From the sequence record OQ223305.1: 64,000 bases of DNA; one strand, given 5' to 3'. The notes below the pieces were generated by a model that made no database searches, had not been told where the DNA came from, and worked only from the letters and a program-made list of their open reading frames with translations. The stretch comes from Escherichia phage EO1. The stretch's first letter is position 1. Each line of letters begins with the position of its first letter. Below are positions 1,041 through 51,599 of the stretch, piece after piece. A program made the translations under genes and the position numbers.

Positions 1041-4000
1041 TTATTCAACCCATTCAAATTTAACAGTTTTATTCACTGGGTCAGGAATAATGCGAACATT
1101 ACCAATTCGTAAGAAATCACGAATAGTAAGATTACCCATTATAGCATTATCAGATGGTAAAGCACCAATATCAGATGGCTGAGGAGGGTTACCTCCGTCA
1201 AATACCTGAACAAAACTTGACCAAGAGTTTTTGGTTTTCTGCCATGTGCGTGTCCAGCGAGTGGTACGTGCTTCTGGCGTCGTTGGATAAGTAATCCAAT
1301 CTTGGTAAAGCGAATCAAGTGTGTTACCAAACTGAGTCAATGTACCAGGAGATTTAACCTCTTCGCCACGTTCTAGGTATGGAAGTCCAGTCACTTCATT
1401 AGTTTTTTCAACCATTTTAAAATAACCCGGGAACTGGTTATAAGTGGCTGAATCGTTAATATCGATTGACCAGAATCCTACAGTATCAGATGTTGGCGCA
1501 CGGGTATATAAGTCAGATGTTTTAGTACCCTGAGAACGAATTCTCGAGTTAACAGTCAAACCGCCTGAATTTATAGTAGCACCTTTGGCAATGATTAAGC
1601 TTTCGCCAATCGTTACTTGACCAGATGCATTATTAATAGCTAATGGGCGTAATCCATTAAATCCACCAGTCTGATCACCCGATGCAGTAAGCATAAAATT
1701 CGTTACTGACCCGTCATTGCGAACAATAAAACCATAATTTCCGTTAATAGCACGGAAAGCATTTGCGCTTCGAGAAATAATTTCACCAGTTGCAGTGACT
1801 GAATTACCAAATGTTGCTACGCCATTTGCATTCAATGTTCCTGAAGCATTAACATTTATCGGTGTTACTGTACCGTTGATATTAAATGTTATATTTCCGG
1901 CTTTATTGCGCTGAGAATAAAAATGACTAGATGTTTCATCACTAACTTCAAATACGGTAGAACGTGTTGTATCTGATTCCCCACTAAATTGATTCCCCCA
2001 CACTCTAACAGTCATCGTTTGGGCTGGGTTTGTTCCAGTTTGAGGTCCTTTCTCAAAAATCAATTGAGTTGCTGTTCCAGTATTAGAAATAGTTAGTGTA
2101 CTATTTGCTGAAACTGATCCACCAAATGTAGCAGTACTAGATGATACAAGAGGGGCACTCAGATTCGTTTGTTGAGTTAAGGTTAGTGAACCATTAACCG
2201 TCTGCGCAATATCCCTACGAATGAACTGGGATGAATCTAGACCATCCAATAAATTCGTGTCAGCAGCTTTTGCTTTTAATGGCAAATAATTTGCTAATAC
2301 ACGGTTTAATTCGTATGGTGATACTGCATAGCTATTTTTCTCATATGATTCTAATGGCTGTGTTGAACCTACCGTATCATTACCAACGAATGTAATTGAA
2401 CCAGATGAAGTTTTAACAAAGCCTCTTACTGCAGTAGTTGCTGCCCAGGTAGGTTCACTCTGCACAATCCATTTTAAATTTTTTGGAGATACAGCAGTAT
2501 TTGCTGATGTTCCAGTCACAGTTTCAGATTGAGTTGCAACTTTAATAACACCTTCTTGTGATTCGGTAGATTTAGTACCTAAAAGCTTTTTAGGAGTTAT
2601 TAAAACATTATCTAATGTTCCTGCAGCAGCTTCAACTTGTGTAGCTACACGAAGTGTACCACGCTGTGTCTCATTTGCTTCAAGAATATTAAGGGTATAA
2701 TGGTCCCAGAGAGTTCCTGATTCAACTAATCCAGATAGAGCAACAACAGAAGTACGATCAGTACTATTAAATCTGGTTTTAATTTTTAATGGTGTAGAGA
2801 TACGAGTATCGTCGACGCCTGCGTCGAATTCAACTTGTGTAGCAATTTCAGCTATACCACTTAAACTTTCAGTTGCTCTACGGTCATTTAAAGTTTTAGG
2901 AGTGACTGCACGAGTATAATCAGTTCCTGTATTAACTTCACTTTGCGTAGCAATTTCAATTAAACCAATTCTTCCATCAGTTGATGTCTTTTTATGTAAC
3001 GTTTCTGGCGTTACAACAGCATTTGCCCATCCTTCTTGACTCTGTCCAGCAATTACTTCACTTTCAACTGCTAAAATTACTGCACCTTGCTGTGTTGGAG
3101 TAGCTTTATACTGATCCAAAGCTTTAGGTGAAACAACTAAATTATTAGTGTTTTTATTATAAACATTCGTACCATTTAATTCACGGCTAGAAGCTGGAGT
3201 AGCTCCTGCAGTAGATACAAAGGTTACAATACCAGATAATGATTCAGAACCTTGTCGAGCTTGAAGCTTTTTAGGAGTGATGATCGTAGTATCATCAGTA
3301 CCTGTATTAGTTTCTTGCTGCGTAGCAATTTCAGCAACACCTCTACGAGTTTCTGTAGCAGTTCTTTCATTCAGCTTTTTAGGAGTGATGATAAGGTCAT
3401 CTGCAAAAGAGAATGTGGTATCCTGGTTTACTTGCGCAGTTGTTGCTATTCTTGCAATACCTCTACGAGTTTCTGTAGCAGTACGATTAGCTAACGTTTC
3501 TGGAGTAATTGCCAGTTCTTTTTGCGGAGAATTTTCTAGATCAGCATTAGCTTGAGCCTGTGTAGCTAAAGCAATTACGCCTAATCTTGCTCTAGTAGAA
3601 TTATTTAAAGAGTCTACTCTTTCTACAGTTGGAACGTTTTGCTGTACAACCCAATATTTTCCATCGGAATCTTCGATATAAGCAAGCTGTAAAACTGGAA
3701 CATAATTGGTTTCGCCATTAAAAACTAATTCTTGAACAGTCACCCATTTAGTTTCAGGTGGGTATTCTGAACGTTTTGGAAATTGCAGCAATTGAACTGA
3801 AGAAGCAATTTTATCTTCACCGGCAGCTTTGATTTTAACTGTTTGTCCTTTTCTCATATAATTCATGGAAATCTTAACAGTATCACCGATAGAAATATCA
3901 GTTGGAAGCTGAAGTTCAATTGTTTGGGTTGTTCCATTATTCGCGCCAAATACCATGACTTCTTCATTTGGACGAATATTAGAATTAGTCGTTATAATGC

Positions 4001-4910
4001 GTAAACGTGCTTTACTATCCCCGTCAAACAATCTCCACAATTTCTCATTATCATCAAACATTAAGAAACCATCAATAGATGTACGGCCTTCAATGGAATG
4101 AGTTCCAACTTCTTGTACTGAAGTTGTTTCATCATATGTGGTAACAATTGTGTGATAAAGTGGATTTAATTTATCTAAATCAACAAAATTAATAATATCC
4201 CCATGATTAGCAAATCTAGGAAGTTTAATATTAATTGCTGAAGCAGAAGTAAATCTACGTACGATAAAATCGTTAGATTGCGCCTGATAAAGACTTGCCG
4301 GTGTTACAATTGCAGCTTCTCTGCTATAATCAGCAACGTACATTTGCCACAGACGATTACTAAAAATTAAAACTATCTGCGATTTTGGATGAGTCATTAG
4401 TACTGATCGTACTTGCTGACCTCTAAAATTTACAATGCTTTGCACCGGAGCTGTAATTAAAACTTGGTTAACTCCAGGTTTTCCTCCAATGTCTTGGAGA
4501 ACGATAGTATCTCCATCAATTGGGGAAGATGGTAAAGTAAATGTAATGTCATTACCAGCTGCAGTATCAACTGAAATTGATTCGCCTGACTTTAATTGAT
4601 AAGGTCCTGATGAAACAGTTGTCCAATTAGCATCAGTACGTAATGCTCTCCAGCGTACGCTATTAAAAGCTCCTGCTGGTTTTGGAATATCATTTATAGC
4701 AGCCCAAAAGCGGTTATCATAAATGATTACAAAATCTTTTAAATATCCACGAGTTGGATCGTATTGTTGAACTGTGTTTTCTTGAATTAAGTAATCAACG
4801 TTGACACCGTCAGTTCCTACGGTACGATCAGCTAAAGCTACGTTGATTATTTTATCGCCACCTGCGTCCAGACCATCTTCTGCTCTGAACTTTCTTTTAA
4901 TCTCGGCCAT
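1041..4910 (-). CDS. 34: Long tail fiber proximal subunit gp34
   Basis: 1289 aa ORF, same length as T4 gp34; internal ~40 aa repeats; flanked by rnh and gene 35. Confidence 0.93.
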   Translation of the reverse strand: MAEIKRKFRAEDGLDAGGDKIINVALADRTVGTDGVNVDYLIQENTVQQYDPTRGYLKDFVIIYDNRFWAAINDIPKPAGAFNSVRWRALRTDANWTTVSSGPYQLKSGESISVDTAAGNDITFTLPSSPIDGDTIVLQDIGGKPGVNQVLITAPVQSIVNFRGQQVRSVLMTHPKSQIVLIFSNRLWQMYVADYSREAAIVTPASLYQAQSNDFIVRRFTSASAINIKLPRFANHGDIINFVDLDKLNPLYHTIVTTYDETTSVQEVGTHSIEGRTSIDGFLMFDDNEKLWRLFDGDSKARLRIITTNSNIRPNEEVMVFGANNGTTQTIELQLPTDISIGDTVKISMNYMRKGQTVKIKAAGEDKIASSVQLLQFPKRSEYPPETKWVTVQELVFNGETNYVPVLQLAYIEDSDGKYWVVQQNVPTVERVDSLNNSTRARLGVIALATQAQANADLENSPQKELAITPETLANRTATETRRGIARIATTAQVNQDTTFSFADDLIITPKKLNERTATETRRGVAEIATQQETNTGTDDTTIITPKKLQARQGSESLSGIVTFVSTAGATPASSRELNGTNVYNKNTNNLVVSPKALDQYKATPTQQGAVILAVESEVIAGQSQEGWANAVVTPETLHKKTSTDGRIGLIEIATQSEVNTGTDYTRAVTPKTLNDRRATESLSGIAEIATQVEFDAGVDDTRISTPLKIKTRFNSTDRTSVVALSGLVESGTLWDHYTLNILEANETQRGTLRVATQVEAAAGTLDNVLITPKKLLGTKSTESQEGVIKVATQSETVTGTSANTAVSPKNLKWIVQSEPTWAATTAVRGFVKTSSGSITFVGNDTVGSTQPLESYEKNSYAVSPYELNRVLANYLPLKAKAADTNLLDGLDSSQFIRRDIAQTVNGSLTLTQQTNLSAPLVSSSTATFGGSVSANSTLTISNTGTATQLIFEKGPQTGTNPAQTMTVRVWGNQFSGESDTTRSTVFEVSDETSSHFYSQRNKAGNITFNINGTVTPINVNASGTLNANGVATFGNSVTATGEIISRSANAFRAINGNYGFIVRNDGSVTNFMLTASGDQTGGFNGLRPLAINNASGQVTIGESLIIAKGATINSGGLTVNSRIRSQGTKTSDLYTRAPTSDTVGFWSIDINDSATYNQFPGYFKMVEKTNEVTGLPYLERGEEVKSPGTLTQFGNTLDSLYQDWITYPTTPEARTTRWTRTWQKTKNSWSSFVQVFDGGNPPQPSDIGALPSDNAIMGNLTIRDFLRIGNVRIIPDPVNKTVKFEWVE
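2420..3560 (-). repeat. In-frame tandem coding repeats (~40 aa / 120 bp units, about 8 copies) in the gp34 shaft
   Basis: Protein shows reiterated ITP(K/E)(K/T)L..R(T/S)ATE..G(I/V)A.IAT motifs; two adjacent units keep 22-nt DNA identity at 3339-3360 and 3459-3480; boundaries approximate. Confidence 0.6.
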
Positions 4911-4944
4911 TCTCCCGGGCTCCTATTGTGTTTTCAATAATAAG

Positions 4945-4952
4945 TATTTATA
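4945..4952 (-). promoter_or_regulatory. Late promoter (TATAAATA) for gene 34
   Basis: Exact TATAAATA on minus strand ~35 nt upstream of gene 34 ATG. Confidence 0.7.
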
Positions 4953-4956
4953 CTTG

Positions 4957-4985
4957 TTTACTTTAAGATTTGGATAGTATATAAT
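4957..4985 (+). promoter_or_regulatory. Early sigma70-type promoter for rnh (GTTTAC -35 region, TATAAT -10)
   Basis: TTTACT, 17-nt spacer, TATAAT at 4980-4985, ~30 nt before rnh ATG. Confidence 0.55.
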
Positions 4986-5014
4986 AGAAATCTCACTAAT
5001 TGAACGAGGTTCAT

Positions 5015-5932
5015 ATGGATTTAGAAATGATGCTGGATGAAGATTACAAAGAAGGAATTTGCTTTATTGACTTTAGTCAAATTGCGCTTTCAACTGCTTT
5101 GGTAAACTTTCCAGATAAAGAAAAAATTAATTTATCAATGGTTCGTCATTTGATATTGAACTCAATTAAGTTTAATGTCAAAAAAGCAAAAACTCTTGGA
5201 TACACTAAAATTGTACTGTGTATTGATAATGCGAAATCTGGATATTGGCGTCGTGATTTCGCGTATTATTATAAGAAAAACCGTGGAAAAGCACGAGAAG
5301 AATCTACTTGGGACTGGGAAGGTTATTTTGAATCCAGTCATAAAGTTATAGATGAATTGAAAGCTTATATGCCATACATTGTTATGGATATCGATAAGTA
5401 TGAAGCAGATGACCACATTGCTGTTCTTGTTAAAAAGTTCTCTTTAGAAGGACACAAGATTTTAATCATTTCATCTGATGGTGACTTTACTCAACTTCAC
5501 AAATATCCAAATGTTAAGCAATGGTCACCGATGCACAAGAAATGGGTTAAAATTAAAAGCGGTTCTGCTGAAATTGACTGTATGACTAAAATCCTTAAAG
5601 GCGATAAAAAGGATAACGTTGCTTCAGTTAAAGTACGATCTGACTTTTGGTTTACCAAAGTTGAAGGTGAACGAACTCCTTCAATGAAAACTTCAATCGT
5701 TGAAGCTATTGCTAATGACCGTGAGCAAGCTAAGGTGCTTCTCACAGAATCTGAATATAATCGTTATAAAGAAAATTTAGTTCTAATTGATTTTGATTAT
5801 ATTCCTGATAATATTGCTTCAAACATTGTGAATTACTATAATTCATATAAATTACCACCGCGTGGCAAAATTTATTCATATTTTGTAAAAGCGGGTCTTT
5901 CTAAATTAACTAATAGCATTAATGAATTTTGA
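5015..5932 (+). CDS. rnh: RNase H (5'-3' exonuclease / flap endonuclease)
   Basis: 305 aa, begins MDLEMMLDEDYKEG as remembered for T4 RNase H; GAGG RBS; the track's upstream TTG start rejected. Confidence 0.93.
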   Translation: MDLEMMLDEDYKEGICFIDFSQIALSTALVNFPDKEKINLSMVRHLILNSIKFNVKKAKTLGYTKIVLCIDNAKSGYWRRDFAYYYKKNRGKAREESTWDWEGYFESSHKVIDELKAYMPYIVMDIDKYEADDHIAVLVKKFSLEGHKILIISSDGDFTQLHKYPNVKQWSPMHKKWVKIKSGSAEIDCMTKILKGDKKDNVASVKVRSDFWFTKVEGERTPSMKTSIVEAIANDREQAKVLLTESEYNRYKENLVLIDFDYIPDNIASNIVNYYNSYKLPPRGKIYSYFVKAGLSKLTNSINEF

Positions 5933-5940
5933 GGTGAATA

Positions 5941-6210
5941 ATGGCTAAAAAAGAAATGGTTGAATTTGATGAAGCTATCCATGGCGAAGACTTGGCTAAA
6001 TTTATTAAAGAAGCATCTGATCATAAACTGAAAATTTCCGGTTATAATGAATTGATTAAAGATATTCGAATTCGTGCCAAAGATGAACTTGGTGTTGATG
6101 GCAAGATGTTTAATCGTCTATTAGCTTTGTATCATAAAGATAATCGTGATGTGTTTGAAGCTGAAACTGAAGAGGTAGTTGAACTTTATGACACAGTTTT
6201 CTCTAAATGA
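5941..6210 (+). CDS. dsbA: Double-stranded DNA binding protein
   Basis: 89 aa, position between rnh and gene 33 as in T4. Confidence 0.85.
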   Translation: MAKKEMVEFDEAIHGEDLAKFIKEASDHKLKISGYNELIKDIRIRAKDELGVDGKMFNRLLALYHKDNRDVFEAETEEVVELYDTVFSK

Positions 6211-6526
6211 TATTCGTCCGGTCGATGAGACCGGTCTTTCAGAAAAAGAACTTTCAATTAAGAAAGAAAAGGATGAAATAGCAAAGCTTCTTGATCGTCA
6301 AGAAAATGGATTTATTATTGAAAAGATGGTAGAAGAATTTGGAATGAGTTATCTTGAAGCTACGACAGCATTCTTGGAAGAAAACTCTATTCCTGAAACT
6401 CAATTTGCTAAATTTATTCCTTCGGGTATAATTGAAAAAATTCAGTCAGAAGCTATTGACGAAAATCTTTTACGTCCTTCTGTTGTTCGTTGTGAAAAAA
6501 CTAATACATTAGATTTTCTGCTATGA
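6188..6526 (+). CDS. 33: Late transcription co-activator gp33
   Basis: 112 aa from the ATG at 6188 (MTQFSLNDIRP...); overlaps dsbA 3' end and gene 59 start (ATGA). Confidence 0.85.
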   Translation: MTQFSLNDIRPVDETGLSEKELSIKKEKDEIAKLLDRQENGFIIEKMVEEFGMSYLEATTAFLEENSIPETQFAKFIPSGIIEKIQSEAIDENLLRPSVVRCEKTNTLDFLL

Positions 6527-7176
6527 TTAAACTCCGCATGCCTGCTGGTGGTGAAAGATATATTGATGGTAAATCAGTTTATAAATTATACTTAATGATA
6601 AAACAGCATATGAATGGAAAGTATGATGTTATTAAGTATAATTGGTGCATGCGGGTGTCTGATGCCGCTTATCAAAAGCGAAGGGATAAGTATTTTTTCC
6701 AGAAGTTATCAGAAAAATATAAATTAAAGGAACTTGCTTTAATCTTTATAAGTAATTTGGTTGCTAACCAAGATGCTTGGATTGGTGACATCTCTGACGC
6801 TGATGCACTTGTGTTTTATCGTGAATATATCGGACGCTTAAAGCAAATTAAATTTAAGTTTGAAGAAGATATTCGCAATATTTACTATTTTAGTAAAAAA
6901 GTTGAAGTTTCTGCTTTTAAAGAAATCTTTGAGTATAATCCAAAAGTTCAATCAAGTTATATTTTTAAACTACTTCAATCGAATATAATTTCGTTTGAGA
7001 CGTTTATCTTGCTTGATTCGTTTTTAAATATAATTGATAAACATGATGAACAGACTGATAATTTAGTCTGGAATAATTATTCTATAAAGTTAAAGGCTTA
7101 TAGAAAAATTTTAAATATTGATTCACAGAAAGCTAAAAATGTTTTCATTGAAACTGTGAAATCTTGTAAGTATTGA
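6523..7176 (+). CDS. 59: Helicase loader gp59
   Basis: 217 aa, same length and position as T4 gp59. Confidence 0.9.
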   Translation: MIKLRMPAGGERYIDGKSVYKLYLMIKQHMNGKYDVIKYNWCMRVSDAAYQKRRDKYFFQKLSEKYKLKELALIFISNLVANQDAWIGDISDADALVFYREYIGRLKQIKFKFEEDIRNIYYFSKKVEVSAFKEIFEYNPKVQSSYIFKLLQSNIISFETFILLDSFLNIIDKHDEQTDNLVWNNYSIKLKAYRKILNIDSQKAKNVFIETVKSCKY

Positions 7177-7177
7177 T

Positions 7178-7810
7178 ATGAATATAGTATATTGGTTTAC
7201 ATTTGAAGACCGTGTCAAAAATAAGACTCCACCATACTACTATATCGGTAGTAAATTAAATTGCTCATTTGAGAACGGAATAATATATGACTCTTCCGGA
7301 AAGGAATACTGGAGCTCATGTAAACAAAAAAGATTTTTGAATGCGCTAATGCTTCAAAAACCGAGCGTTAAAATAATTCAAATTGATGATGACTTGGATG
7401 TTATTGAAGCAGAACGAAAATACCAACTTGAAGTAAATGCCAGAGATAATCCAGACTATTTTAATCTGGTATATGCTGGTGGTGGATTTGGTGTGAGTGG
7501 TGAAACTCATCCAGCCAAAGACCCGGAAGTTAGAGAGCATATGAGATTGGCTAATTATATGAACCGTGACGATTTTAGACCTTGGAAAACATCACGAGCT
7601 AATATAGAGTCTTGGAAATTATCTCATATTGCTTACGAGAATTATGTGTTATTATTATCCTCTAATCTGTACGGTAAAACTCCTGGATGGCGAAGAGTTA
7701 AAGGTAATATAAATATAACTGATACAACTGCTAAATCGATGGTAAAGTATTTCAACTCAGGTTGGATACCTCTCGAAGACCCAGAGTATTGCAAATTATG
7801 CCAGCTATGA
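7178..7810 (+). CDS. segG: GIY-YIG family homing endonuclease, SegG-like by position
   Basis: N-terminal IVYWFTF...YYYIGS fits a GIY-YIG variant; sits between 59 and 32 where T4 carries segG. Confidence 0.65.
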   Translation: MNIVYWFTFEDRVKNKTPPYYYIGSKLNCSFENGIIYDSSGKEYWSSCKQKRFLNALMLQKPSVKIIQIDDDLDVIEAERKYQLEVNARDNPDYFNLVYAGGGFGVSGETHPAKDPEVREHMRLANYMNRDDFRPWKTSRANIESWKLSHIAYENYVLLLSSNLYGKTPGWRRVKGNINITDTTAKSMVKYFNSGWIPLEDPEYCKLCQL

Positions 7811-28645: not shown

Positions 28646-28914
28646 TGTTTGTTGTTCATACTATTTATGAAAATGAAGGTAATACTACACGTGATTATGG
28701 ACACGTAAATCAATTTTTTAGATGCAATCCAGAATTCCGTGCTCAAAAGGATGAACGAATTTTTAAAAAATGTGTAGAACAAGGTTTCATTTACGTCAAG
28801 CACTGGATGCAAGGAAATAAAGTTAGAACTACATATCATAAGTCTTTGCCTGAGCTTAATGATGAATTGATTTATAATAGAGCTGTAAACCAAACTTTGA
28901 AGGATGAGCAATGA
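28645..28914 (+). CDS. Hypothetical protein
   Basis: 89 aa, TAATG coupling. Confidence 0.5.
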   Translation: MFVVHTIYENEGNTTRDYGHVNQFFRCNPEFRAQKDERIFKKCVEQGFIYVKHWMQGNKVRTTYHKSLPELNDELIYNRAVNQTLKDEQ

Positions 28915-30374
28915 TTCTTAAAATTCTGAATGAAATAGCATCTATTGGATCAACTAAGCAGAAGCAAGCAATTCTTGAAAAGAATAAAGATAATGAATTG
29001 CTTAAACGGGTATATCGTCTGACTTATTCTCGTGGGTTACAGTATTATATCAAGAAATGGCCTAAACCTGGTATTGCTACCCAGAGTTTTGGAATGCTGA
29101 CTATTACCGATATGCTTGACTTCATTGAATTCACGTTAGCTACTCGGAAATTGACCGGAAATGCTGCAATTGAGGAATTGACTGGATATATCACCGATGG
29201 TAAAAAGGATGATGTTGAAGTTTTGCGTCGAGTGATGATGCGAGACCTTGAATGCGGTGCTTCAGTATCTATTGCAAACAAAGTTTGGCCAGGTTTAATT
29301 CCTGAACAACCTCAAATGCTGGCAAGTTCTTATGATGAAAAGGGCATTAGTAAGAATATCAAATTTCCAGCCTTTGCACAGTTAAAAGCAGATGGAGCTC
29401 GGTGTTTTGCTGAAGTCCGAGGTGATGAATTAGATGATGTTCGTCTTTTATCACGAGCTGGTAATGAATATCTAGGATTAGATCTTCTTAAGGAAGAGTT
29501 AATCAAAATGACTGCTGAAGCCCGCCAGATTCATCCAGAAGGTGTGTTAATTGATGGCGAATTGGTATACCATGAGCAAGTTAAAAAGGAACCAGAAGGC
29601 CTAGATTTTCTTTTTGATGCTTATCCTGAAATTAGTAAAGCTAAAGAATTCGCCGAAGTAGCGGAATCTCGTACTACTTCTAATGGAATCGCCAATAAAT
29701 CCTTAAAAGGAACCATTTCTGAAAAAGAAGCTCAATGTATGAAGTTTCAGGTCTGGGATTATGTCCCGTTGGTAGAAATATATGGTCTTCCGGCGTTTCG
29801 TTTAAAATATGATGTACGTTTTTCTAAACTAGAACAAATGACATCAGGATATGATAAAGTAATTTTAATTGAAAACCAGGTAGTAAATAACCTAGATGAA
29901 GCTAAGGTAATTTATAAAAAGTATATTGACCAAGGTCTTGAAGGTATTATTCTCAAAAATACCGATGGATTGTGGGAAAATGCTCGTTCAAAAAATCTCT
30001 ATAAATTTAAAGAAGTAATTGATGTTGATTTAAAAATTGTAGGAATTTATCCTCACCGTAAAGACCCTACTAAAGCAGGTGGATTTATTCTTGAATCAGA
30101 GTGTGGAAAAATTAAAGTAAATGCTGGTTCAGGCTTAAAAGATAAAGCCGGTGTAAAATCACATGAACTTGACCGTACTCGCATTATGGAAAACCAAAAT
30201 TATTATATTGGAAAAATTCTAGAGTGCGAATGCAATGGTTGGTTAAAATCTGATGGCCGCGCCGATTATGTTAAATTATTTCTTCCGATTGCGATTCGTT
30301 TACGTGAAGATAAAACTAAAGCTAATACATTCGAGGATGTATTTGGTGATTTTCATGAGGTAACTGGTCTATGA
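28911..30374 (+). CDS. 30: ATP-dependent DNA ligase
   Basis: 487 aa; KADGAR adenylation motif; same length as T4 DNA ligase. Confidence 0.95.
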   Translation: MILKILNEIASIGSTKQKQAILEKNKDNELLKRVYRLTYSRGLQYYIKKWPKPGIATQSFGMLTITDMLDFIEFTLATRKLTGNAAIEELTGYITDGKKDDVEVLRRVMMRDLECGASVSIANKVWPGLIPEQPQMLASSYDEKGISKNIKFPAFAQLKADGARCFAEVRGDELDDVRLLSRAGNEYLGLDLLKEELIKMTAEARQIHPEGVLIDGELVYHEQVKKEPEGLDFLFDAYPEISKAKEFAEVAESRTTSNGIANKSLKGTISEKEAQCMKFQVWDYVPLVEIYGLPAFRLKYDVRFSKLEQMTSGYDKVILIENQVVNNLDEAKVIYKKYIDQGLEGIILKNTDGLWENARSKNLYKFKEVIDVDLKIVGIYPHRKDPTKAGGFILESECGKIKVNAGSGLKDKAGVKSHELDRTRIMENQNYYIGKILECECNGWLKSDGRADYVKLFLPIAIRLREDKTKANTFEDVFGDFHEVTGL

Positions 30375-30559
30375 AAGCTTACTTAGAAACAATTATCGTG
30401 GCTCAAAAAGAAGGTGGAGATGTTTCTACTTCTGTATCACAAATTATGATTGAATTTATAGATGCATATGCTTATAATAAATTTACAGAAACATTTGATG
30501 CCTACGAAAAAGGTCCAAAGTTTGAAATATATCGTACTCTATTACCAATAGATTATTAA
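30371..30559 (+). CDS. Hypothetical protein
   Basis: 62 aa, ATGA coupling to ligase. Confidence 0.45.
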   Translation: MKAYLETIIVAQKEGGDVSTSVSQIMIEFIDAYAYNKFTETFDAYEKGPKFEIYRTLLPIDY

Positions 30560-30583
30560 AGGCCTTCGGGCCTTTAATTTTAT
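30558..30583 (+). terminator. Rho-independent terminator
   Basis: aaaggcc-ttcg-ggccttt hairpin followed by aatttta. Confidence 0.65.
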
Positions 30584-30588
30584 AAATA
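30581..30588 (+). promoter_or_regulatory. Late promoter TATAAATA for alt
   Basis: Exact TATAAATA 24 nt upstream of alt ATG; Alt is a late, virion-packaged protein. Confidence 0.65.
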
Positions 30589-30611
30589 GAATAAACACTA
30601 GAGAGGATATG

Positions 30612-32705
30612 ATGGAACTCATTACAGAATTATTTGACGAAGATACTACTCTTCCGATTACAAACTTAAATCCAAAGAAGAAAATACCACAAATTTTTTC
30701 AGTTCATGTTGATGATGCAATTGAACAACCAGGCTTTCGTTTATGTACCTATACATCTGGAGGTGATACTAATCGTGATTTAAAGATGGGCGATAAAATG
30801 ATGCATATTGTTCCTTTTACATTAACTGCTAAAGGTTCAATTGCTAAATTAAAAGGTCTTGGTCCAAGCCCGATTAATTATATCAATTCAGTTTTTACTG
30901 TTGCAATGCAAACAATGCGTCAATATAAAATTGATGCCTGTATGCTTCGTATTCTTAAGTCTAAAACTGCTGGCCAAGCTCGACAAATTCAAGTTATTGC
31001 TGATAGACTTATCCGTAGTCGTTCAGGTGGTAGATACGTCCTTCTTAAGGAACTCTGGGATTACGATAAAAAGTATGCATATATTCTTATACATCGCAAA
31101 AATGTATCACTAGAAGACATTCCAGGAGTTCCGGAAATTAGTACCGAGCTCTTTACTAAAGTTGAATCGAAAGTCGGTGATGTTTATATCAATAAAGATA
31201 CTGGAGCCCAAGTAACTAAAAATGAGGCAATTGCAGCATCAATTGCACAAGAAAATGATAAACGTTCTGACCAAGCCGTAATCGTTAAAGTTAAAATTTC
31301 CCGTAGAGCAATTGCACAAAGTCAGTCATTGGAATCTTCTAGATTTGAAAGTGAATTATTCCAGAAGTATGAATCTACAGCAGCTAATTTTAATAAACCA
31401 GCTACTGCACCTTTAATTCCCGAAGCAGAAGAAATGAAAATTGGAATTAATTCATTAGCTTCTAAAACAAAGGCAGCAAAAATTATTGCTGAAGGAACGG
31501 CAAATGAACTTCACTATGATTATAAATTCTTTCCAATGAGTCAAGTCGGTGAAGTTTCAGAAAAAATTAAAGAAGTAATTTTTAATGCAATTAAAAATGA
31601 ACCAACTACTTCAATAAAATGTTTAGAGAAATACGCAGCAGCTGTAAATCAATTCTTTGAAGATTATAAAGATAAATGGCTTGCTAATCATAATAAAAAT
31701 CGTAAAGGACAACCAGATGAAGTCTGGGAAGAAATAACTAAAAATTCCTGGAACGCAGCAAAAACTAAATTCCTCAAACGAATGATTTACAGTTTTTCTG
31801 GAATTGGTTCTGGTCCAATGATTGATATTACTATTGCCCGCGATGGTTCTAAATATACTCCATCACAAAAGCGTGGCATTAGAGAATATTGCGGTTCAGG
31901 ATATACTGACATCAATAATCTTCTTTTAGGTCGTTACAATCCAGAACGATATGATGTAATGAGTGAAAAAGAAATTGAATCTGCTATAAATAACTTAGAT
32001 TCAGCTTTTGAAAATGGTGACCGTATACCAGAAGGCATTACAGTTTATCGTGCTCAAAGTATGACTGCTCCTATATATGAAGCGTTAGTTAAAAATAAAG
32101 TGTTCTATTTCAGAAATTTTGTATCTACTTCTTTAACTCCTATCATTTTTGGGCGTTTTGGAATTACACATGCTGGTATTGGTCTTTTAGAACCAGAAGC
32201 TCGTAACGAATTGACAGTTGATAAAAATGAAGAAGGAATAACTATTAATCCAAACGAAATAAGAGCGTATAAAGAAAATCCTGAATACGTTAAAGTTCAA
32301 ATAGGATGGGCAATTGATGGAGCTCATAAAGTTAATGTTGTATATCCAGGAAGTCTCGGAATAGCAACAGAAGCTGAAGTTATTCTACCACGAGGATTGA
32401 TGGTCAAAGTTAATAAAATAACTGATGCTTCTAATAATGACGGAACAACATCTAATAATACAAAACTCATTCAAGCTGAAGTTATGACTACGGAAGAACT
32501 CACCGAATCAGTAATTTATGACGGTGACCGTCTAATGGAAACTGGTGAAGTAGTTGCAATGACAGGTGATATTGAAATAGAAGACAGAGTTGACTTTGCA
32601 TCATTTGTTTCATCAAATGTTAAACAGAAAGCAGAATCATCTCTCGGAATTATTGCGTCTTGCATAGATATTACAAACATGCCTTACAAGTTCGTTCAAG
32701 GATAA
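30612..32705 (+). CDS. alt: Alt-type ADP-ribosyltransferase (copy 1)
   Basis: 697 aa; N-terminus MELITELFDEDTTLPITNL; R-S-ExE ART motifs (YRAQ, FVSTSL, EAEVILPRG). Confidence 0.85.
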   Translation: MELITELFDEDTTLPITNLNPKKKIPQIFSVHVDDAIEQPGFRLCTYTSGGDTNRDLKMGDKMMHIVPFTLTAKGSIAKLKGLGPSPINYINSVFTVAMQTMRQYKIDACMLRILKSKTAGQARQIQVIADRLIRSRSGGRYVLLKELWDYDKKYAYILIHRKNVSLEDIPGVPEISTELFTKVESKVGDVYINKDTGAQVTKNEAIAASIAQENDKRSDQAVIVKVKISRRAIAQSQSLESSRFESELFQKYESTAANFNKPATAPLIPEAEEMKIGINSLASKTKAAKIIAEGTANELHYDYKFFPMSQVGEVSEKIKEVIFNAIKNEPTTSIKCLEKYAAAVNQFFEDYKDKWLANHNKNRKGQPDEVWEEITKNSWNAAKTKFLKRMIYSFSGIGSGPMIDITIARDGSKYTPSQKRGIREYCGSGYTDINNLLLGRYNPERYDVMSEKEIESAINNLDSAFENGDRIPEGITVYRAQSMTAPIYEALVKNKVFYFRNFVSTSLTPIIFGRFGITHAGIGLLEPEARNELTVDKNEEGITINPNEIRAYKENPEYVKVQIGWAIDGAHKVNVVYPGSLGIATEAEVILPRGLMVKVNKITDASNNDGTTSNNTKLIQAEVMTTEELTESVIYDGDRLMETGEVVAMTGDIEIEDRVDFASFVSSNVKQKAESSLGIIASCIDITNMPYKFVQG

Positions 32706-32708
32706 ATC

Positions 32709-34766
32709 ATGGAACTTATTACAGAATTATTTGACGGCGCTTCGGCGCCGGTTGTTAACTTAAATCCTAAGCATAAAATACCTCAAATTTTTGCTATTCA
32801 AGCCGGTGAAGAAAGCGTGCTTCCTGGATTTAGATTTTGTACATACACCTCTGGCGGTGATACAAATAAAAACGTTAAGCCAGGCGATAAAATGATGCAT
32901 ATCGTAATGATAGGTGTCAATGAGAAACTATCATTAGTTAAACTTAAAAACTTGGGTGGAAATCCAATTGGTGTTATTAATGCGGTTTTTGATACTGCTC
33001 TTCAAACAATGAAACAGTATAAAATTGACGCATGCCTGTTCCGCGTACTAAAGAGTAAAACAAATGGCGCAGCTCGACAAATTCAAGTTATTGCTGACCG
33101 TTTAGTACGTACTAAAGGAGCAGGTCGATATGTTCTTTTAAAGGAAATCTGGGATTACGATAAAAAGTATGCATATATTATGGTTTACCGTAAAAATGCC
33201 AATTTAGAAGACATTCCAGGTGTACCTCCTATTTCAACTGAGTTATTCACAAAAGTTGAATCAAAGGTTGGTGATGTTTATGTAGACGTTAAAACAGGTA
33301 ATGCTGTTCCTAAAGCTGTTGCTGTTGCCGCTTCTATTGCTTTAGAAAATGATAAGCGCACGGATCAAGCTGTTATTCAGAAAACTAAAATTAGTCGTCG
33401 ATTAGCAGCACAAGCTCAATACTCTACTGTCGATGCTTCACTTCAGGGCGATAGTTTCGCTGCTAAGAAATATCAAGAGTTTGAATCTAAAGTTCCGGTA
33501 TATAAAGCAGAAGGACCAATGAACTCTGGCGTTATTCAGATTGGTTCAAACTTCGGCAAAGGAGCTATCGGTGGTATGAGGAGTGCTTCTCGTTTTAAAT
33601 CTAGTGATTATGAACTAGAAAGCTTCCGAAATCATATTGCATTGGCCCATGCGCGTTTACGTGATCCATCTATTAAATTACAGAGCGATATAACATATCA
33701 AGGTTCTCAGGAATATTTAAAGAATAAAGAATTTTTTGATTATAAAACTGATAAAATTTTAAGCGATCTTGCTGACATTAATATTTCTAATAGCTTTGAT
33801 GTTATTAAGAAAATTGTCAATGATTTAGTTAAAGGTTCTAAAGCCACGCCAGATGAAAAGGTAGCTATTATTCAATTTGTCATGAATGGCATTTATAAAT
33901 TGATTAATGAGTCTGCTTCTCAAGCGTATGAATATGCAAGTACTGAAGTACCCCCAAAAGGATTAACTCGGGCTGAGTCTGATGTAATTGAAGATTATTG
34001 CGCAGATTCATATGTTGAAATGAACTCGTTCCTTTTAGGTAAACCGGATTCTACTCGTGAAGAATATATGGAACGAGCTATTAAACACATCGAGACGATG
34101 GATTCTGCTTTTGCCAAAGGATCAGTTCTTCCTCCAGGAACTACGCTTTACCGTGGCCAAGAAGTTACCTTTAAAACTTTACGTCATAATATTGAAAATA
34201 AAATGTTCTATTTTAAGAACTTCGTATCCACATCGCTTAAACCAAATATCTTCGGTGAGTATGGTAAAAACTATATGACTCTAGATGATTCCAGTGCAGT
34301 ATTTTCTGGTGAAGGAGAAGGTTCAATTGACGCAGAAGATTTGATGCATATGGGCAGTCATTCTGCTTATGCGAATGAAGATGCTGAAACTAGCGTGGGT
34401 ATGGTAATTAAAGGAGCTGAGCGAATCAAAGTTATCGTTCCGGGTCATTTATCAGGATTTCCGTCAGAAGCTGAAGTTATTTTACCACGTGGAATTTTGC
34501 TGAAGATTAATAAAGTGAGCACGTACATGATGAAAGAAACTGCTTATAACAAGTATTTAATCGAAGGTACAATCGTTCCTCCTTCTGAACAATTAGAAGA
34601 ATCGGTATATGATGGCGATCATCTGATGGAAACTGGTGAAGTTCGTCCAATGGCTGGATTTAATCAATTCCTTGTAGAAGAATCAAAAGAAGAGGAAAAC
34701 GAAGTTTCTCAAATCTTGGCTTCTTTGGTTAACATCAACGGAATGTCTAAAAAGTTCAAAATGTAG
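32709..34766 (+). CDS. Alt-family ADP-ribosyltransferase paralog (copy 2)
   Basis: 685 aa; collinear with copy 1 (MELITELFDG...; YRGQ, FVSTSL, EAEVILPRG). Confidence 0.8.
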   Translation: MELITELFDGASAPVVNLNPKHKIPQIFAIQAGEESVLPGFRFCTYTSGGDTNKNVKPGDKMMHIVMIGVNEKLSLVKLKNLGGNPIGVINAVFDTALQTMKQYKIDACLFRVLKSKTNGAARQIQVIADRLVRTKGAGRYVLLKEIWDYDKKYAYIMVYRKNANLEDIPGVPPISTELFTKVESKVGDVYVDVKTGNAVPKAVAVAASIALENDKRTDQAVIQKTKISRRLAAQAQYSTVDASLQGDSFAAKKYQEFESKVPVYKAEGPMNSGVIQIGSNFGKGAIGGMRSASRFKSSDYELESFRNHIALAHARLRDPSIKLQSDITYQGSQEYLKNKEFFDYKTDKILSDLADINISNSFDVIKKIVNDLVKGSKATPDEKVAIIQFVMNGIYKLINESASQAYEYASTEVPPKGLTRAESDVIEDYCADSYVEMNSFLLGKPDSTREEYMERAIKHIETMDSAFAKGSVLPPGTTLYRGQEVTFKTLRHNIENKMFYFKNFVSTSLKPNIFGEYGKNYMTLDDSSAVFSGEGEGSIDAEDLMHMGSHSAYANEDAETSVGMVIKGAERIKVIVPGHLSGFPSEAEVILPRGILLKINKVSTYMMKETAYNKYLIEGTIVPPSEQLEESVYDGDHLMETGEVRPMAGFNQFLVEESKEEENEVSQILASLVNINGMSKKFKM

Positions 34767-34795
34767 TTTACAAGTCCCTCGTGTTGTGTTATAAT
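34767..34795 (+). promoter_or_regulatory. Early promoter (TTTACA, 17 nt, TGtTATAAT)
   Basis: GTTTACA at 34766-34772 and TATAAT at 34790-34795; ~54-nt near-identical copy of the alc promoter and leader. Confidence 0.6.
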
Positions 34796-34826: not shown

Positions 34827-35117
34827 ATGAAATCTTCTTTGCGCTTTTTAGGTCAAGAACTTGTAGTTGAAGGCGTTATTCCTGCTGATAATGCTTTTAA
34901 TGAAGCAGTTTATGATGAATTTATCAAAATTTTTGGAACAGATAAAAAGTTCGGAATTTTTCCTTCTGAAAATTTTTCAAAGCCAGAGCAGACTGAAAGC
35001 ATTTTCCAAGGTGTAGTAACAGGTAAATTTGAGTCAGAAGCTCCGGTAAAAATTGAAGTTTATATTGAAGACAGTTTAGTTGCTTCAGTTGCTGCTTTTA
35101 TTTCATTCCGTAAATAA
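34827..35117 (+). CDS. Hypothetical protein
   Basis: 96 aa with GAGGAA RBS. Confidence 0.55.
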   Translation: MKSSLRFLGQELVVEGVIPADNAFNEAVYDEFIKIFGTDKKFGIFPSENFSKPEQTESIFQGVVTGKFESEAPVKIEVYIEDSLVASVAAFISFRK

Positions 35118-35121
35118 AAAC

Positions 35122-35142
35122 ATGGGGACCGAAAGGTCCCCA
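35122..35142. terminator. Bidirectional terminator between convergent transcripts
   Basis: atggggacc-gaaa-ggtccccat hairpin flanked by A-run and T-run. Confidence 0.7.
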
Positions 35143-35145
35143 TTG

Positions 35146-50033: not shown

Positions 50034-51599
50034 TTAGATACCTTTAACATATACACGGCGGAAGTAAGCGTTTTTACCAAGGCTATTCAGAATAGAAGGC
50101 ATACCGCTCTGGATGCGAGAAGCCGGAGCCTGAGCAGCGGATTCTGCAAATGGGTTGATACCGATACCGTAACGAGTTTTGAATCCCATTACTGGTTGGA
50201 AGTTCTTCGGATCGGAACCACGCAGCGGAGTCAGAGCTACATATGGAGCATAGTAAATACCAGCATCCATTTCGTTCGGACCTTTATAACCTACAGTGAA
50301 ATAATCCTGTTTAGCATACTGGTCGATATATACACGGTATTTACCACCCAGAACACCAGCAAATACTGACTTGGTAGTATCAGTGTTAAAGCCTGTAGCC
50401 AGACCCTGTGCAGCATAAGAAATGCCAGTATCAACTGAAGCCAGAACGTTAACTACGTTACGGGAAGCGATAATGAAGTTACCTTCACCACGACCGGTCT
50501 GACGAGCAATTTCAACTGCTTCTTTGTCAATCTGGAACAACAGAGCTTTAAAGGATTCACCCGCCCAGCGAGCACCACGAATATCAATCGGATCCTGGAA
50601 GTCAAATACACCAGCTTTAGAACCCGGAGTTAGGGTCATACCAGATTTACCAACCTGAGCTGAGTAGTTAATCCAATCAACAACTTCACGGTTGATTTCC
50701 AGCATGATTTCGGTAGCCAGAATACCAGACAGTTCAGCATCAGCATCCATACCGTGAACAGCGCGGAGGTCTTGTGCTAATTCGATAGAGTAAGCAGCTT
50801 TCAGCTGACGAGATTTAGCTTCGATAACTTGTTTATCGATACGGAAGCCCATTTCATTCCATGGGTTATCGGTAGAACCGTTGAAACCTTCCTGAAGTTC
50901 AGCGATAGAAGTAGCCATACCTTCAGCGATTTCTACCAGTACACCAGCTTCCATTTGTTTCTTAATTTCAGCATCTAATTTAGCTGCATCAGTTGCGCTT
51001 GCACTAATTGTTACTTGAGCAGAAGCCTGCAGATACACAGTACCAGTGTCCTGGAAGAAGTGAGTATAGATATCACCTACTGTGGTTTCTGTGCTAGCAG
51101 CCAGAGCCGGGAATTTCTTAGCAGCACCCTGGCCAGAGAACATTGCATCTGGACCATACATTGGGTGGAATGCTTCTTTAGCACCGGAAGCGATTGGGTC
51201 TTTACCATATACTGCACGCAGTGCGAATACCTGGCCAGTCGGGCTGTTCATCGGCTGAACACCACAAATATCGAAAGCAATCAGGTTAGGAATAGCACGA
51301 CGTACCATACCCATAACAGCTGGGCCAATCTGAGTTACTGCGCCAGAAGTCTGACCAGCAGCGATGTTAGTAGCATTGTAACCGTGGTCACCACCGATTT
51401 CAGCTTCTGTTAAGAAAGAACCGAACGCCTGAGCGATTTTTTCGTCTTTGTACTCTGGAGCTGTCTGGAAATCTTTTTCCTGGTTTTCAAAGATTTTAGC
51501 GATAATCGCTTGTTTGCTATTAGCAATTTCCGGTAAACCTTCACCTTCCAGTAATGGCTTCCATTTGTTCAAAAGTTCAGCTTTAGTTTTGATAGTCAT
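50034..51599 (-). CDS. 23: Major capsid protein gp23
   Basis: 521 aa, same length as T4 gp23. Confidence 0.95.
   Translation of the reverse strand: MTIKTKAELLNKWKPLLEGEGLPEIANSKQAIIAKIFENQEKDFQTAPEYKDEKIAQAFGSFLTEAEIGGDHGYNATNIAAGQTSGAVTQIGPAVMGMVRRAIPNLIAFDICGVQPMNSPTGQVFALRAVYGKDPIASGAKEAFHPMYGPDAMFSGQGAAKKFPALAASTETTVGDIYTHFFQDTGTVYLQASAQVTISASATDAAKLDAEIKKQMEAGVLVEIAEGMATSIAELQEGFNGSTDNPWNEMGFRIDKQVIEAKSRQLKAAYSIELAQDLRAVHGMDADAELSGILATEIMLEINREVVDWINYSAQVGKSGMTLTPGSKAGVFDFQDPIDIRGARWAGESFKALLFQIDKEAVEIARQTGRGEGNFIIASRNVVNVLASVDTGISYAAQGLATGFNTDTTKSVFAGVLGGKYRVYIDQYAKQDYFTVGYKGPNEMDAGIYYAPYVALTPLRGSDPKNFQPVMGFKTRYGIGINPFAESAAQAPASRIQSGMPSILNSLGKNAYFRRVYVKGI

Follow-up and report, generated by a model that had tools for sequence, protein, structure and literature searches.

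Among the closest known counterparts of the genes reported here is Alt of bacteriophage T4 (gpAlt, NP_049811), an NAD+--arginine ADP-ribosyltransferase and a component of the prohead scaffolding core present in about 40 copies (PMC9958956). Alt is ejected into the host, and its N terminus and C terminus are trimmed by the protease gp21 (PMC9026906); according to the T4 record X15811, 6 amino acids (aa) are cleaved off the protein. The means by which Alt is targeted to the core has been stated to be unknown, and the capsid-targeting sequence of IPII and IPIII is not common to the other core proteins (PMC9958956). The T4 open reading frames (ORFs) alt.-1 and alt.-2 are paralogous to alt, and a full-length alt duplicate is present in phage 44RR (Nolan et al. 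2006, PMC1524935). Here, a stretch of 64,000 nucleotides (nt) from Escherichia phage EO1 (OQ223305.1), referred to as the window, was examined at its alt locus (positions 30612 to 34766), where two complete Alt-type ADP-ribosyltransferase (ART) genes lie in tandem. The first gene (copy 1) is an allele of alt, and the second (copy 2) corresponds to the gene named Alt2 in several relatives. The reading favored here, with moderate confidence, is that of a two-gene late unit whose products, Alt and Alt2, would both be packaged, trimmed by gp21, and injected as ARTs with different substrates.

Two conserved Alt-type genes in tandem

The two genes are as follows.

30612..32705, plus strand: copy 1, a non-T4 allele of alt with a type-A effector, 697 aa
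32709..34766, plus strand: copy 2, Alt2 (also altb or "alt.-2 full length"), type-B effector, 685 aa

A preliminary description of this DNA had reported adjacent, collinear ORFs of 697 and 685 aa separated by 3 bp, and this was exact. The copy-1 stop codon TAA (32703-32705) is followed after 3 bp by the copy-2 ATG, and BLASTP aligned the two proteins collinearly over their full length with 41% identity (727 columns, E value of 8e-159). Copy 1 and copy 2 are collinear paralogs, with a similarity far beyond chance. The motifs quoted in that description were also found, namely, a shared N terminus (MELITELFD...NLNPK.KIPQIF), VYRAQ in copy 1 or LYRGQ in copy 2, FVSTS, and EAEVILPRG. An additional in-frame ATG occurs at 30609, 2 nt past the GAGG Shine-Dalgarno sequence of copy 1; the ATG at 30612 was taken as the start because 30609 is too near the GAGG, whereas 30612 is properly spaced and yields MELITE. 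Position 30612 is also the annotated start in other records. The predicted mass of each Alt protein is ~77 kDa.

The ART domain family PF03496 (ADPrib_exo_Tox) matched copy 1 with 129.9 bits and copy 2 with 71.8 bits (cut-off, 23.4), and phrog_802 spanned residues 1-696 of copy 1 (4e-273) and residues 1-685 of copy 2 (9e-255). Close homologs carry both PF26846 (Tevenvirinae_ADPRT) and PF03496 in precomputed tables. No match to either copy was obtained in the NCBIfam scan, and the PDB sequence search returned no match for copy 2, only weak matches to CdtA and iota for copy 1, and no solved Alt structure. The predicted ART fold of the R-S-E clade was found in both copies. Catalytic columns were judged in a 22-sequence alignment, which included both paralog lineages and several genera, and in a 19-sequence alignment, with the following residues located.

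32049..32051, plus strand: catalytic Arg480 of copy 1 (VYR), in an invariant column aligned with the catalytic Arg of CdtA and iota Ia
32124..32132, plus strand: Ser505-Thr506-Ser507 of copy 1 (STS), with S505 and S507 invariant
32370..32378, plus strand: Glu587-Ala-Glu589 of copy 1 (ExE), invariant and aligned with the EYE of CdtA
34152..34154, plus strand: catalytic Arg482 of copy 2 (LYR), invariant
34227..34235, plus strand: Ser507-Thr508-Ser509 of copy 2, with S507 and S509 invariant and T508 nearly invariant
34467..34475, plus strand: Glu587-Ala-Glu589 of copy 2 (ExE), invariant

No catalytic residue was lost from either copy on alignment, in agreement with the earlier suggestion that both are catalytically competent. 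On every feature testable here, both copies belong to the Alt family and to the R-S-E clade, and they are predicted to be arginine-type (R-S-ExE) mono-ARTs. The bacterial ART toxins of that clade (C3-like, Vis, iota, and VIP2) are only 14 to 24% identical in sequence to the Alt proteins, which have about 470 extra N-terminal residues (an N-terminal module and a helical centre) and a processed tail. The toxins are delivered by secretion or by a binary-toxin B component, whereas Alt is carried inside the phage capsid.

Both genes are under strong purifying selection, and neither is a pseudogene. Among seven Tequatrovirus orthologs (Nei-Gojobori method), copy 1 had a whole-gene ratio of nonsynonymous to synonymous divergence (dN/dS) of 0.062 and copy 2 had one of 0.047; dS values were 0.14 to 0.19. 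The ratios were lower in the N-terminal module (0.008 for copy 1 and 0.016 for copy 2), and the centre was the region of weakest constraint within each gene (0.135 and 0.082, respectively). Because the ORFs are intact, all catalytic residues are kept, and dN/dS is low, both genes are considered to be maintained by selection.

Module structure and probable recombination at the alt locus

Modules were compared among copies 1 and 2, T4 Alt, JS98 alta and altb, the three Alt-like genes of the Dhakavirus WG01, and the single Alt-like genes of Klebsiella phage kv_tblp5 and of the Kanagawavirus CIP9. The module boundaries in the window are as follows.

30612..31325, plus strand: N-terminal module of copy 1 (aa 1-238) with the MELITE propeptide; it shares 100% identity with T4 Alt, 68% with copy 2, and 47% with JS98 alta
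31326..31856, plus strand: central helical module of copy 1 (type A, window/WG01_200 subtype), 33% identical to T4 Alt, 67% to WG01 ORF200, and 8% to copy 2
32709..33422, plus strand: N-terminal module of copy 2 (aa 1-238, including the MELITE propeptide)
33423..33968, plus strand: central helical module of copy 2 (type B), which shares 46% identity with JS98 altb and 8-15% with every type-A centre

The N-terminal module follows phage lineage. The two window copies share 68% identity in this part, and each is only 41 to 47% identical to every non-Tequatrovirus protein; the non-Tequatrovirus N-terminal modules are 62 to 98% identical to one another regardless of effector type. In contrast, the centre and the ART domain with its tail sort by effector type and not by lineage. 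Type A comprises copy 1, T4 Alt, JS98 alta, WG01_200, kv_tblp5, and CIP9, type B comprises copy 2, JS98 altb, and WG01_199, and type C is represented by WG01_201. Identities between types were 8 to 22% in the centre and 30 to 39% in the ART domain plus tail.

The same modules structure the difference between copy 1 and T4 Alt. Copy 1 is the positional ortholog of T4 Alt, lying between alt.1/gene 30 and alt.-3/gene 54, and has in common with it the late promoter, the upstream hairpin, the R-S-ExE residues, and the MELITE propeptide. The two proteins are identical to about aa 250 and near-identical over the last ~60 aa, whereas identity is 33% in the centre and 64 to 72% in the ART domain (70% overall), and the loops between the STS and ExE motifs differ in length. 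Similarity to T4 in blastn disappears across 31419-31847. Set against T4 Alt, copy 1 is therefore mosaic and represents a non-T4 allele of alt. Its effector half is nearer to WG01 ORF200 (67% identity in the centre and 85% in the ART domain plus tail) than to T4 Alt, but its N-terminal module is only 47% identical to that of WG01_200; therefore, either effector halves have moved between lineages or N-terminal modules have been replaced. The copy-1 type of allele was counted in roughly 319 records, and the T4 type was counted in roughly 175; Alt-like genes numbered ~1,200. In phage Bas35, an intact Alt2 accompanies an Alt of the T4 type, and the copy-1 allele and the presence of Alt2 therefore assort independently.

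The divergence of the central regions had been noted in the preliminary description and was, if anything, understated there. Over ~180 aa, the centres of copies 1 and 2 are 8 to 10% identical, and no homology between type-A and type-B centres was detected by profile-profile comparison (hhalign probability of 0.4%), with profiles that were shallow (Neff of 2.7) and would still allow a remote kinship. The ART domains of the two copies are only 36% identical. In AlphaFold models, both copies have an alpha/beta N-terminal domain, an all-helical centre, an ART domain, and a disordered tail that ends in a helix; helix spacing is alike in both predicted centres, and the copy-2 model superposes over its full length on the 31%-identical Alt of phage SP18 (TM scores of 0.72/0.78). 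The two centres are read, from these models, as one fold that may have diverged past sequence recognition. An exhaustive search of a representative library with the copy-2 centre (33423-33968) gave 0 matches, its own family included, and was treated as uninformative; tblastn matched the same centre in 445 phage records. The cluster representative in the library may have another centre, or the family may be absent from the library.

This divergence bears on whether the two enzymes are functionally redundant, with RNA polymerase alpha and others as the main targets of both and with copy 2 contributing only dosage or robustness. Redundancy would fit the ExE (arginine-type) signature and the architecture that are common to both copies, as well as the viability of T4 without copy 2. 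It is nonetheless quite unlikely given that the centres lack detectable homology, that the ART domains are so dissimilar, and that Tequatrovirus and Dhakavirus have each kept types A and B apart. Furthermore, allelic differences inside type A already alter an anti-defence phenotype: plating on a strain with Mokosh type I is recovered with T4 Alt but not with Bas37 Alt (preprint 10.1101/2025.11.20.689424), in a study that names one Alt gene per phage. Because Alt alleles differ against Mokosh, a functional weight of the differences among Alt proteins is supported.

Exchange between the tandem genes was suggested by two metagenomic contigs, each with a single chimeric gene between alt.1 and alt.-3 that joins a copy-1 N-terminal module to a copy-2 body. 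These Logan contigs were SRR24155011_2765 (4001-6055) and SRR19633722_48321 (4001-6061), and each contained one clean breakpoint, at about aa 185 in one and about aa 220 in the other. The chimeric genes look like products of unequal recombination between the tandem N-terminal modules. An assembly artefact is less likely because the breakpoints miss the only shared 32-mer. A third chimeric protein, P0004, switches near aa 100.

The number of Alt copies per locus ranged from 1 to 3, and the locus has the character of a small modular effector array. Escherichia phage WG01 (NC_031928) carries three tandem Alt-like genes at 1350-7462, with ORF201 (631 aa) as a third effector type; VYRSQ and ETEVILPRG are kept in ORF201, and simple patterns found no FVSTS-type motif and no YDGD...ETGE tail in it. 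In the Acinetobacter phages ZZ1 and Henu6 (BFVD I3WW50, A0A410T5F4, and A0A410T542), Alt is annotated as a "split RNA polymerase ADP-ribosylase." The N-terminal and ART parts of these proteins appear to be separate genes, another sign of separable modules.

MuF-fused and polyvalent phage head effectors and polymorphic toxins (Iyer et al. 2017, 2022) likewise combine a conserved delivery part with a variable effector, and have tandem diversified copies and recombination in the conserved part, as at the alt locus. They differ from the alt locus in that the variable part of the latter is always an ART, with variation in the centre and the ART loops. Neither Alt protein had a Pfam or PHROGs match to MuF (Phage_Mu_F), and no immunity gene was found at the alt locus, where the neighbors are alt.1 (Phage_blade) and alt.-3 (DUF5498). 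The resemblance would be one of functional logic only, and membership in these systems is not claimed.

A wider possibility, put forward tentatively, is that the T-even alt locus is a recombining array of injected-effector cassettes, in which a lineage-specific N-terminal module would be combined with interchangeable centre-plus-ART cassettes that cross genera, each directed at a different host or defence protein. The N-terminal capsid-loading modules would then be kept similar among tandem copies by recombination, and Alt2 would be a distinct early-acting effector, possibly with a role in counter-defence. No contrast between a lineage-bound N-terminal module and exchangeable effector halves was found in the literature searched.

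Predicted expression, packaging, and targets

Signals for expression of the pair were read as follows.

30558..30575, plus strand: UUCG-loop hairpin AAAGGCC-TTCG-GGCCTTT, read from the sequence, between the alt.1 stop codon and the late promoter
30581..30588, plus strand: T4-type late promoter TATAAATA, an exact match, 23 nt before the copy-1 ATG
32698..32702, plus strand: Shine-Dalgarno sequence AAGGA for copy 2, within the last copy-1 codons CAA GGA TAA, 6 nt before the ATG

The UUCG hairpin also precedes alt in T4, JS98, and WG01 despite differing flanks, and TATAAATA stands in the equivalent place in T4, with CATAAATA there instead in JS98 and WG01. No late promoter lies directly before copy 2, and the only well-placed one is upstream of copy 1, as the preliminary description had stated; no terminator-like site was found between the two genes. 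Given the 3-bp gap, the embedded Shine-Dalgarno sequence, and the lack of a terminator, we infer that copies 1 and 2 are co-transcribed from the one late promoter. The signals are those of coupled translation, with copy 2 predicted to be coupled to copy 1, and the embedded Shine-Dalgarno layout is repeated in WL-3, PP01, JS98 (alta/altb), and WG01 (200/199).

The account of a single promoter was refined in one respect. Copy 1 itself contains another exact match to TATAAATA (31985-31992, codons A-I-N-N), which lies 717 bp upstream of copy 2 and is kept in 9 of 10 alleles of the copy-1 type. It was rejected as a dependable late promoter for copy 2, being absent from T4-type alleles (it is missing from T4 alt and lies elsewhere in Bas35) and lost by a synonymous change in PP01. 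With 18 matches to TATAAATA in the window versus 9 expected, the internal match is probably due to chance; less probably, it might provide copy 2 with a weak late start from within copy 1.

Both copies begin with MELITE, and Glu6 of the (I/L)-x-Glu gp21 motif was invariant in 22/22 homologs (as ITE or LNE). Candidate C-terminal gp21 sites were located in both tails.

32532..32540, plus strand: LME of copy 1 (aa 641-643), in the invariant YDGDxLMETGE, candidate C-terminal gp21 cleavage site
34623..34631, plus strand: LME of copy 2 (aa 639-641), in YDGDHLMETGE, candidate C-terminal gp21 site

In the copy-2 model, pLDDT is <50 at aa 630-652, around the LME, indicating a low-confidence and probably disordered tail.

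These signals bear on a second alternative, in which copy 2 would be an active ART but no virion passenger, acting late in the producing cell on host or phage proteins, with its N-terminal module serving a non-targeting role. The literature searched contained no virion proteomics of the second copy, and the published uncertainty over the route of Alt to the core, together with the restriction of the IPII/IPIII targeting sequence (PMC9958956), leaves room for such a role. Against it, copy 2 retains an unaltered MELITE propeptide as well as the invariant LME-TGE near its C terminus, its N-terminal module is its most constrained region (dN/dS of 0.016), and a late promoter is predicted to drive its transcription together with that of the packaged Alt. 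A purely intracellular role is thus considered unlikely.

Under the favored reading, in which both proteins are packaged and injected, the two copies would be made together late in infection from one mRNA, and their common N-terminal module would take both proteins into the prohead core. The protease gp21, which is encoded in the same window, would trim each of them at MELITE| and probably also at LME|TGE. At the next infection, the two enzymes would be injected with the DNA and would modify arginines in differing sets of host proteins, with the choice of target set by the centre of each copy and by the variable loops between STS and ExE. In both copies, the centre and the ART loops are unlike those of T4 Alt. 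The earlier proposal of two packaged ART effectors with different targets is thus supported as far as sequence allows.

Several points weigh against this reading. The case for different targets is drawn from sequence divergence, and the expression, packaging, processing, and enzymatic activity of Alt2 are all inferred; LME|TGE as the C-terminal cleavage site in both copies is a guess. The similar helix patterns of the two predicted centres may stem in part from mixed-type alignments given to AlphaFold. No paper characterizing Alt2 was found in the literature, and Alt2 is dispensable at least on laboratory hosts, because T4 and about 90 other records do without it.

Alt2 among T4 relatives and its remnant in T4

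Whether the tandem arrangement is the standard reference state had been left open in the preliminary description. T4 itself does not show it, having only a stub in place of the second gene; among T4 relatives, the arrangement is common and already annotated. The tandem pair as a feature is thus already known, with T4 as the exception. Existing annotations of the pair include "Alt-like RNA polymerase ADP-ribosyltransferase (x2)" (RefSeq), "alt.-2" (RB27 and Kha5h), and "alta"/"altb" (JS98), and the names "Alt" and "Alt2" are used in the BASEL phages Bas35, Bas38, Bas39, and Bas43. Copy 2 is the same gene as Alt2 of the BASEL phages, altb of JS98, and the full-length "alt.-2" of RB14, RB27, RB32, RB51, and Kha5h. 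It is 96 to 98% identical in hundreds of Tequatrovirus records, directly after alt, and the window copy is an ordinary member with no material difference; the effector half of JS98 altb is 46 to 58% identical to that of copy 2. The copy-2 centre was ≥90% identical in 401 phage records, and ≥80% of the whole 4.9-kb region aligned in 368 records; the window instance is 97.6% identical to a deposited phage. The literature searched held no functional study of Alt2, altb, or full-length alt.-2, and Alt2 appears to be functionally uncharacterized.

Two short ORFs, alt.-1 (61 aa) and alt.-2 (67 aa), come after alt (682 aa) in T4 (NC_000866). The first shares 95% identity with aa 1-56 of copy 2, and the second shares 98% identity with aa 62-116. 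PHROGs built on these two ORFs match copy 2 best. The T4 record attributes both to an ancient duplication of the initial part of alt. Direct comparison with the window placed two differences in T4 relative to copy 2.

32868..32872, plus strand: A5 run, A4 in T4, the 1-nt frameshift separating T4 alt.-1 from alt.-2
33048..34746, plus strand: 1,699-bp copy-2 segment deleted in T4, bounded by CTAAAGAGT (33048) and CTAAAAAGT (34747)

The length of the deletion is not a multiple of 3, and its junction lies within a 9-bp microhomology (CTAAAGAGT / CTAAAAAGT). With a frameshift, an out-of-frame deletion, and 95 to 98% identity to copy 2, the data fit T4 alt.-1 and alt.-2 being pseudogene fragments, the decayed remnant of a once full-length Alt2. 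T4 would have lost Alt2 through the frameshift and the microhomology-flanked deletion. The T4-type deletion junction was present in 91 records, many of them T4 stocks, and no explicit account of alt.-1/alt.-2 as a frameshift-plus-deletion remnant was found in the literature searched.

The remnant in T4 and the other records with its junction, together with the contigs in which the pair has collapsed into one chimeric gene, could suggest that copy 2 is a decaying duplicate that by chance is still open in EO1. This is very improbable, and it was refuted for the window by the selection test (copy-2 dN/dS of 0.047 at dS of 0.19 across 7 phages). The full-length ORF is retained in about 400 records, orthologs in another genus (48% identity) have all motifs intact, and the dS of 0.19 argues against the orthologs being recent clonal copies.

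The surrounding gene order is that of the Alt-family genome position (gene 30 - alt.1 - [alt genes] - alt.-3 - 54 - 48 - 29). Upstream of the pair are, in order, 30.2, 30.1, the gene 30 DNA ligase (28911-30374), and alt.1 (30371-30559), and downstream are alt.-3 (34827-35117, DUF5498) and then genes 54, 48, and 29 on the minus strand. Farther along are the genes for gp24, gp23, gp22 (the scaffold), and gp21 (the prohead protease). The window is a segment of a T4-like (Tequatrovirus) genome with its alt locus in the common two-gene form. No tRNAs were found in the window, and its sole GC-rich block (44% versus about 35%; 50034-51599) is the major capsid protein gene gp23 and is ordinary.

Right after the copy-2 stop codon, at 34767-34795, a T4-early-type promoter was observed (GTTTACA, 17 nt, and TATAAT with an upstream TG; 11/12 consensus matches), and the stretch from copy 2 to alt.-3 contains no terminator-like site. 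The sequence suggests that alt.-3 probably has its own early promoter besides any read-through from the late alt/Alt2 unit. The Alt.-3 of the window is 100% identical to that of T4, in which mutants with an Alt.-3 extended at the C terminus evade CmdTAC defence (PMC11618068). At 35122-35143, between the convergent alt.-3 and 54, a 9-bp-stem hairpin had a terminator score on both strands.

The gene pair itself is routine annotation, and Alt2 is a well-defined gap created by an atypical reference. T4 is atypical with respect to injected ADP-ribosyltransferases in that most relatives keep the full-length gene; if Alt2 is indeed a distinct early-acting effector within a recombining array of cassettes, five decades of research on T4, which has lost the gene, would have overlooked it. 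The module pattern, with its lineage-bound N-terminal module, exchangeable effector halves, 1 to 3 copies, and chimeric collapses, bears on both substrate choice and packaging. Alt2 is a widespread, strongly conserved, and apparently unstudied enzyme that is probably delivered with the phage DNA.

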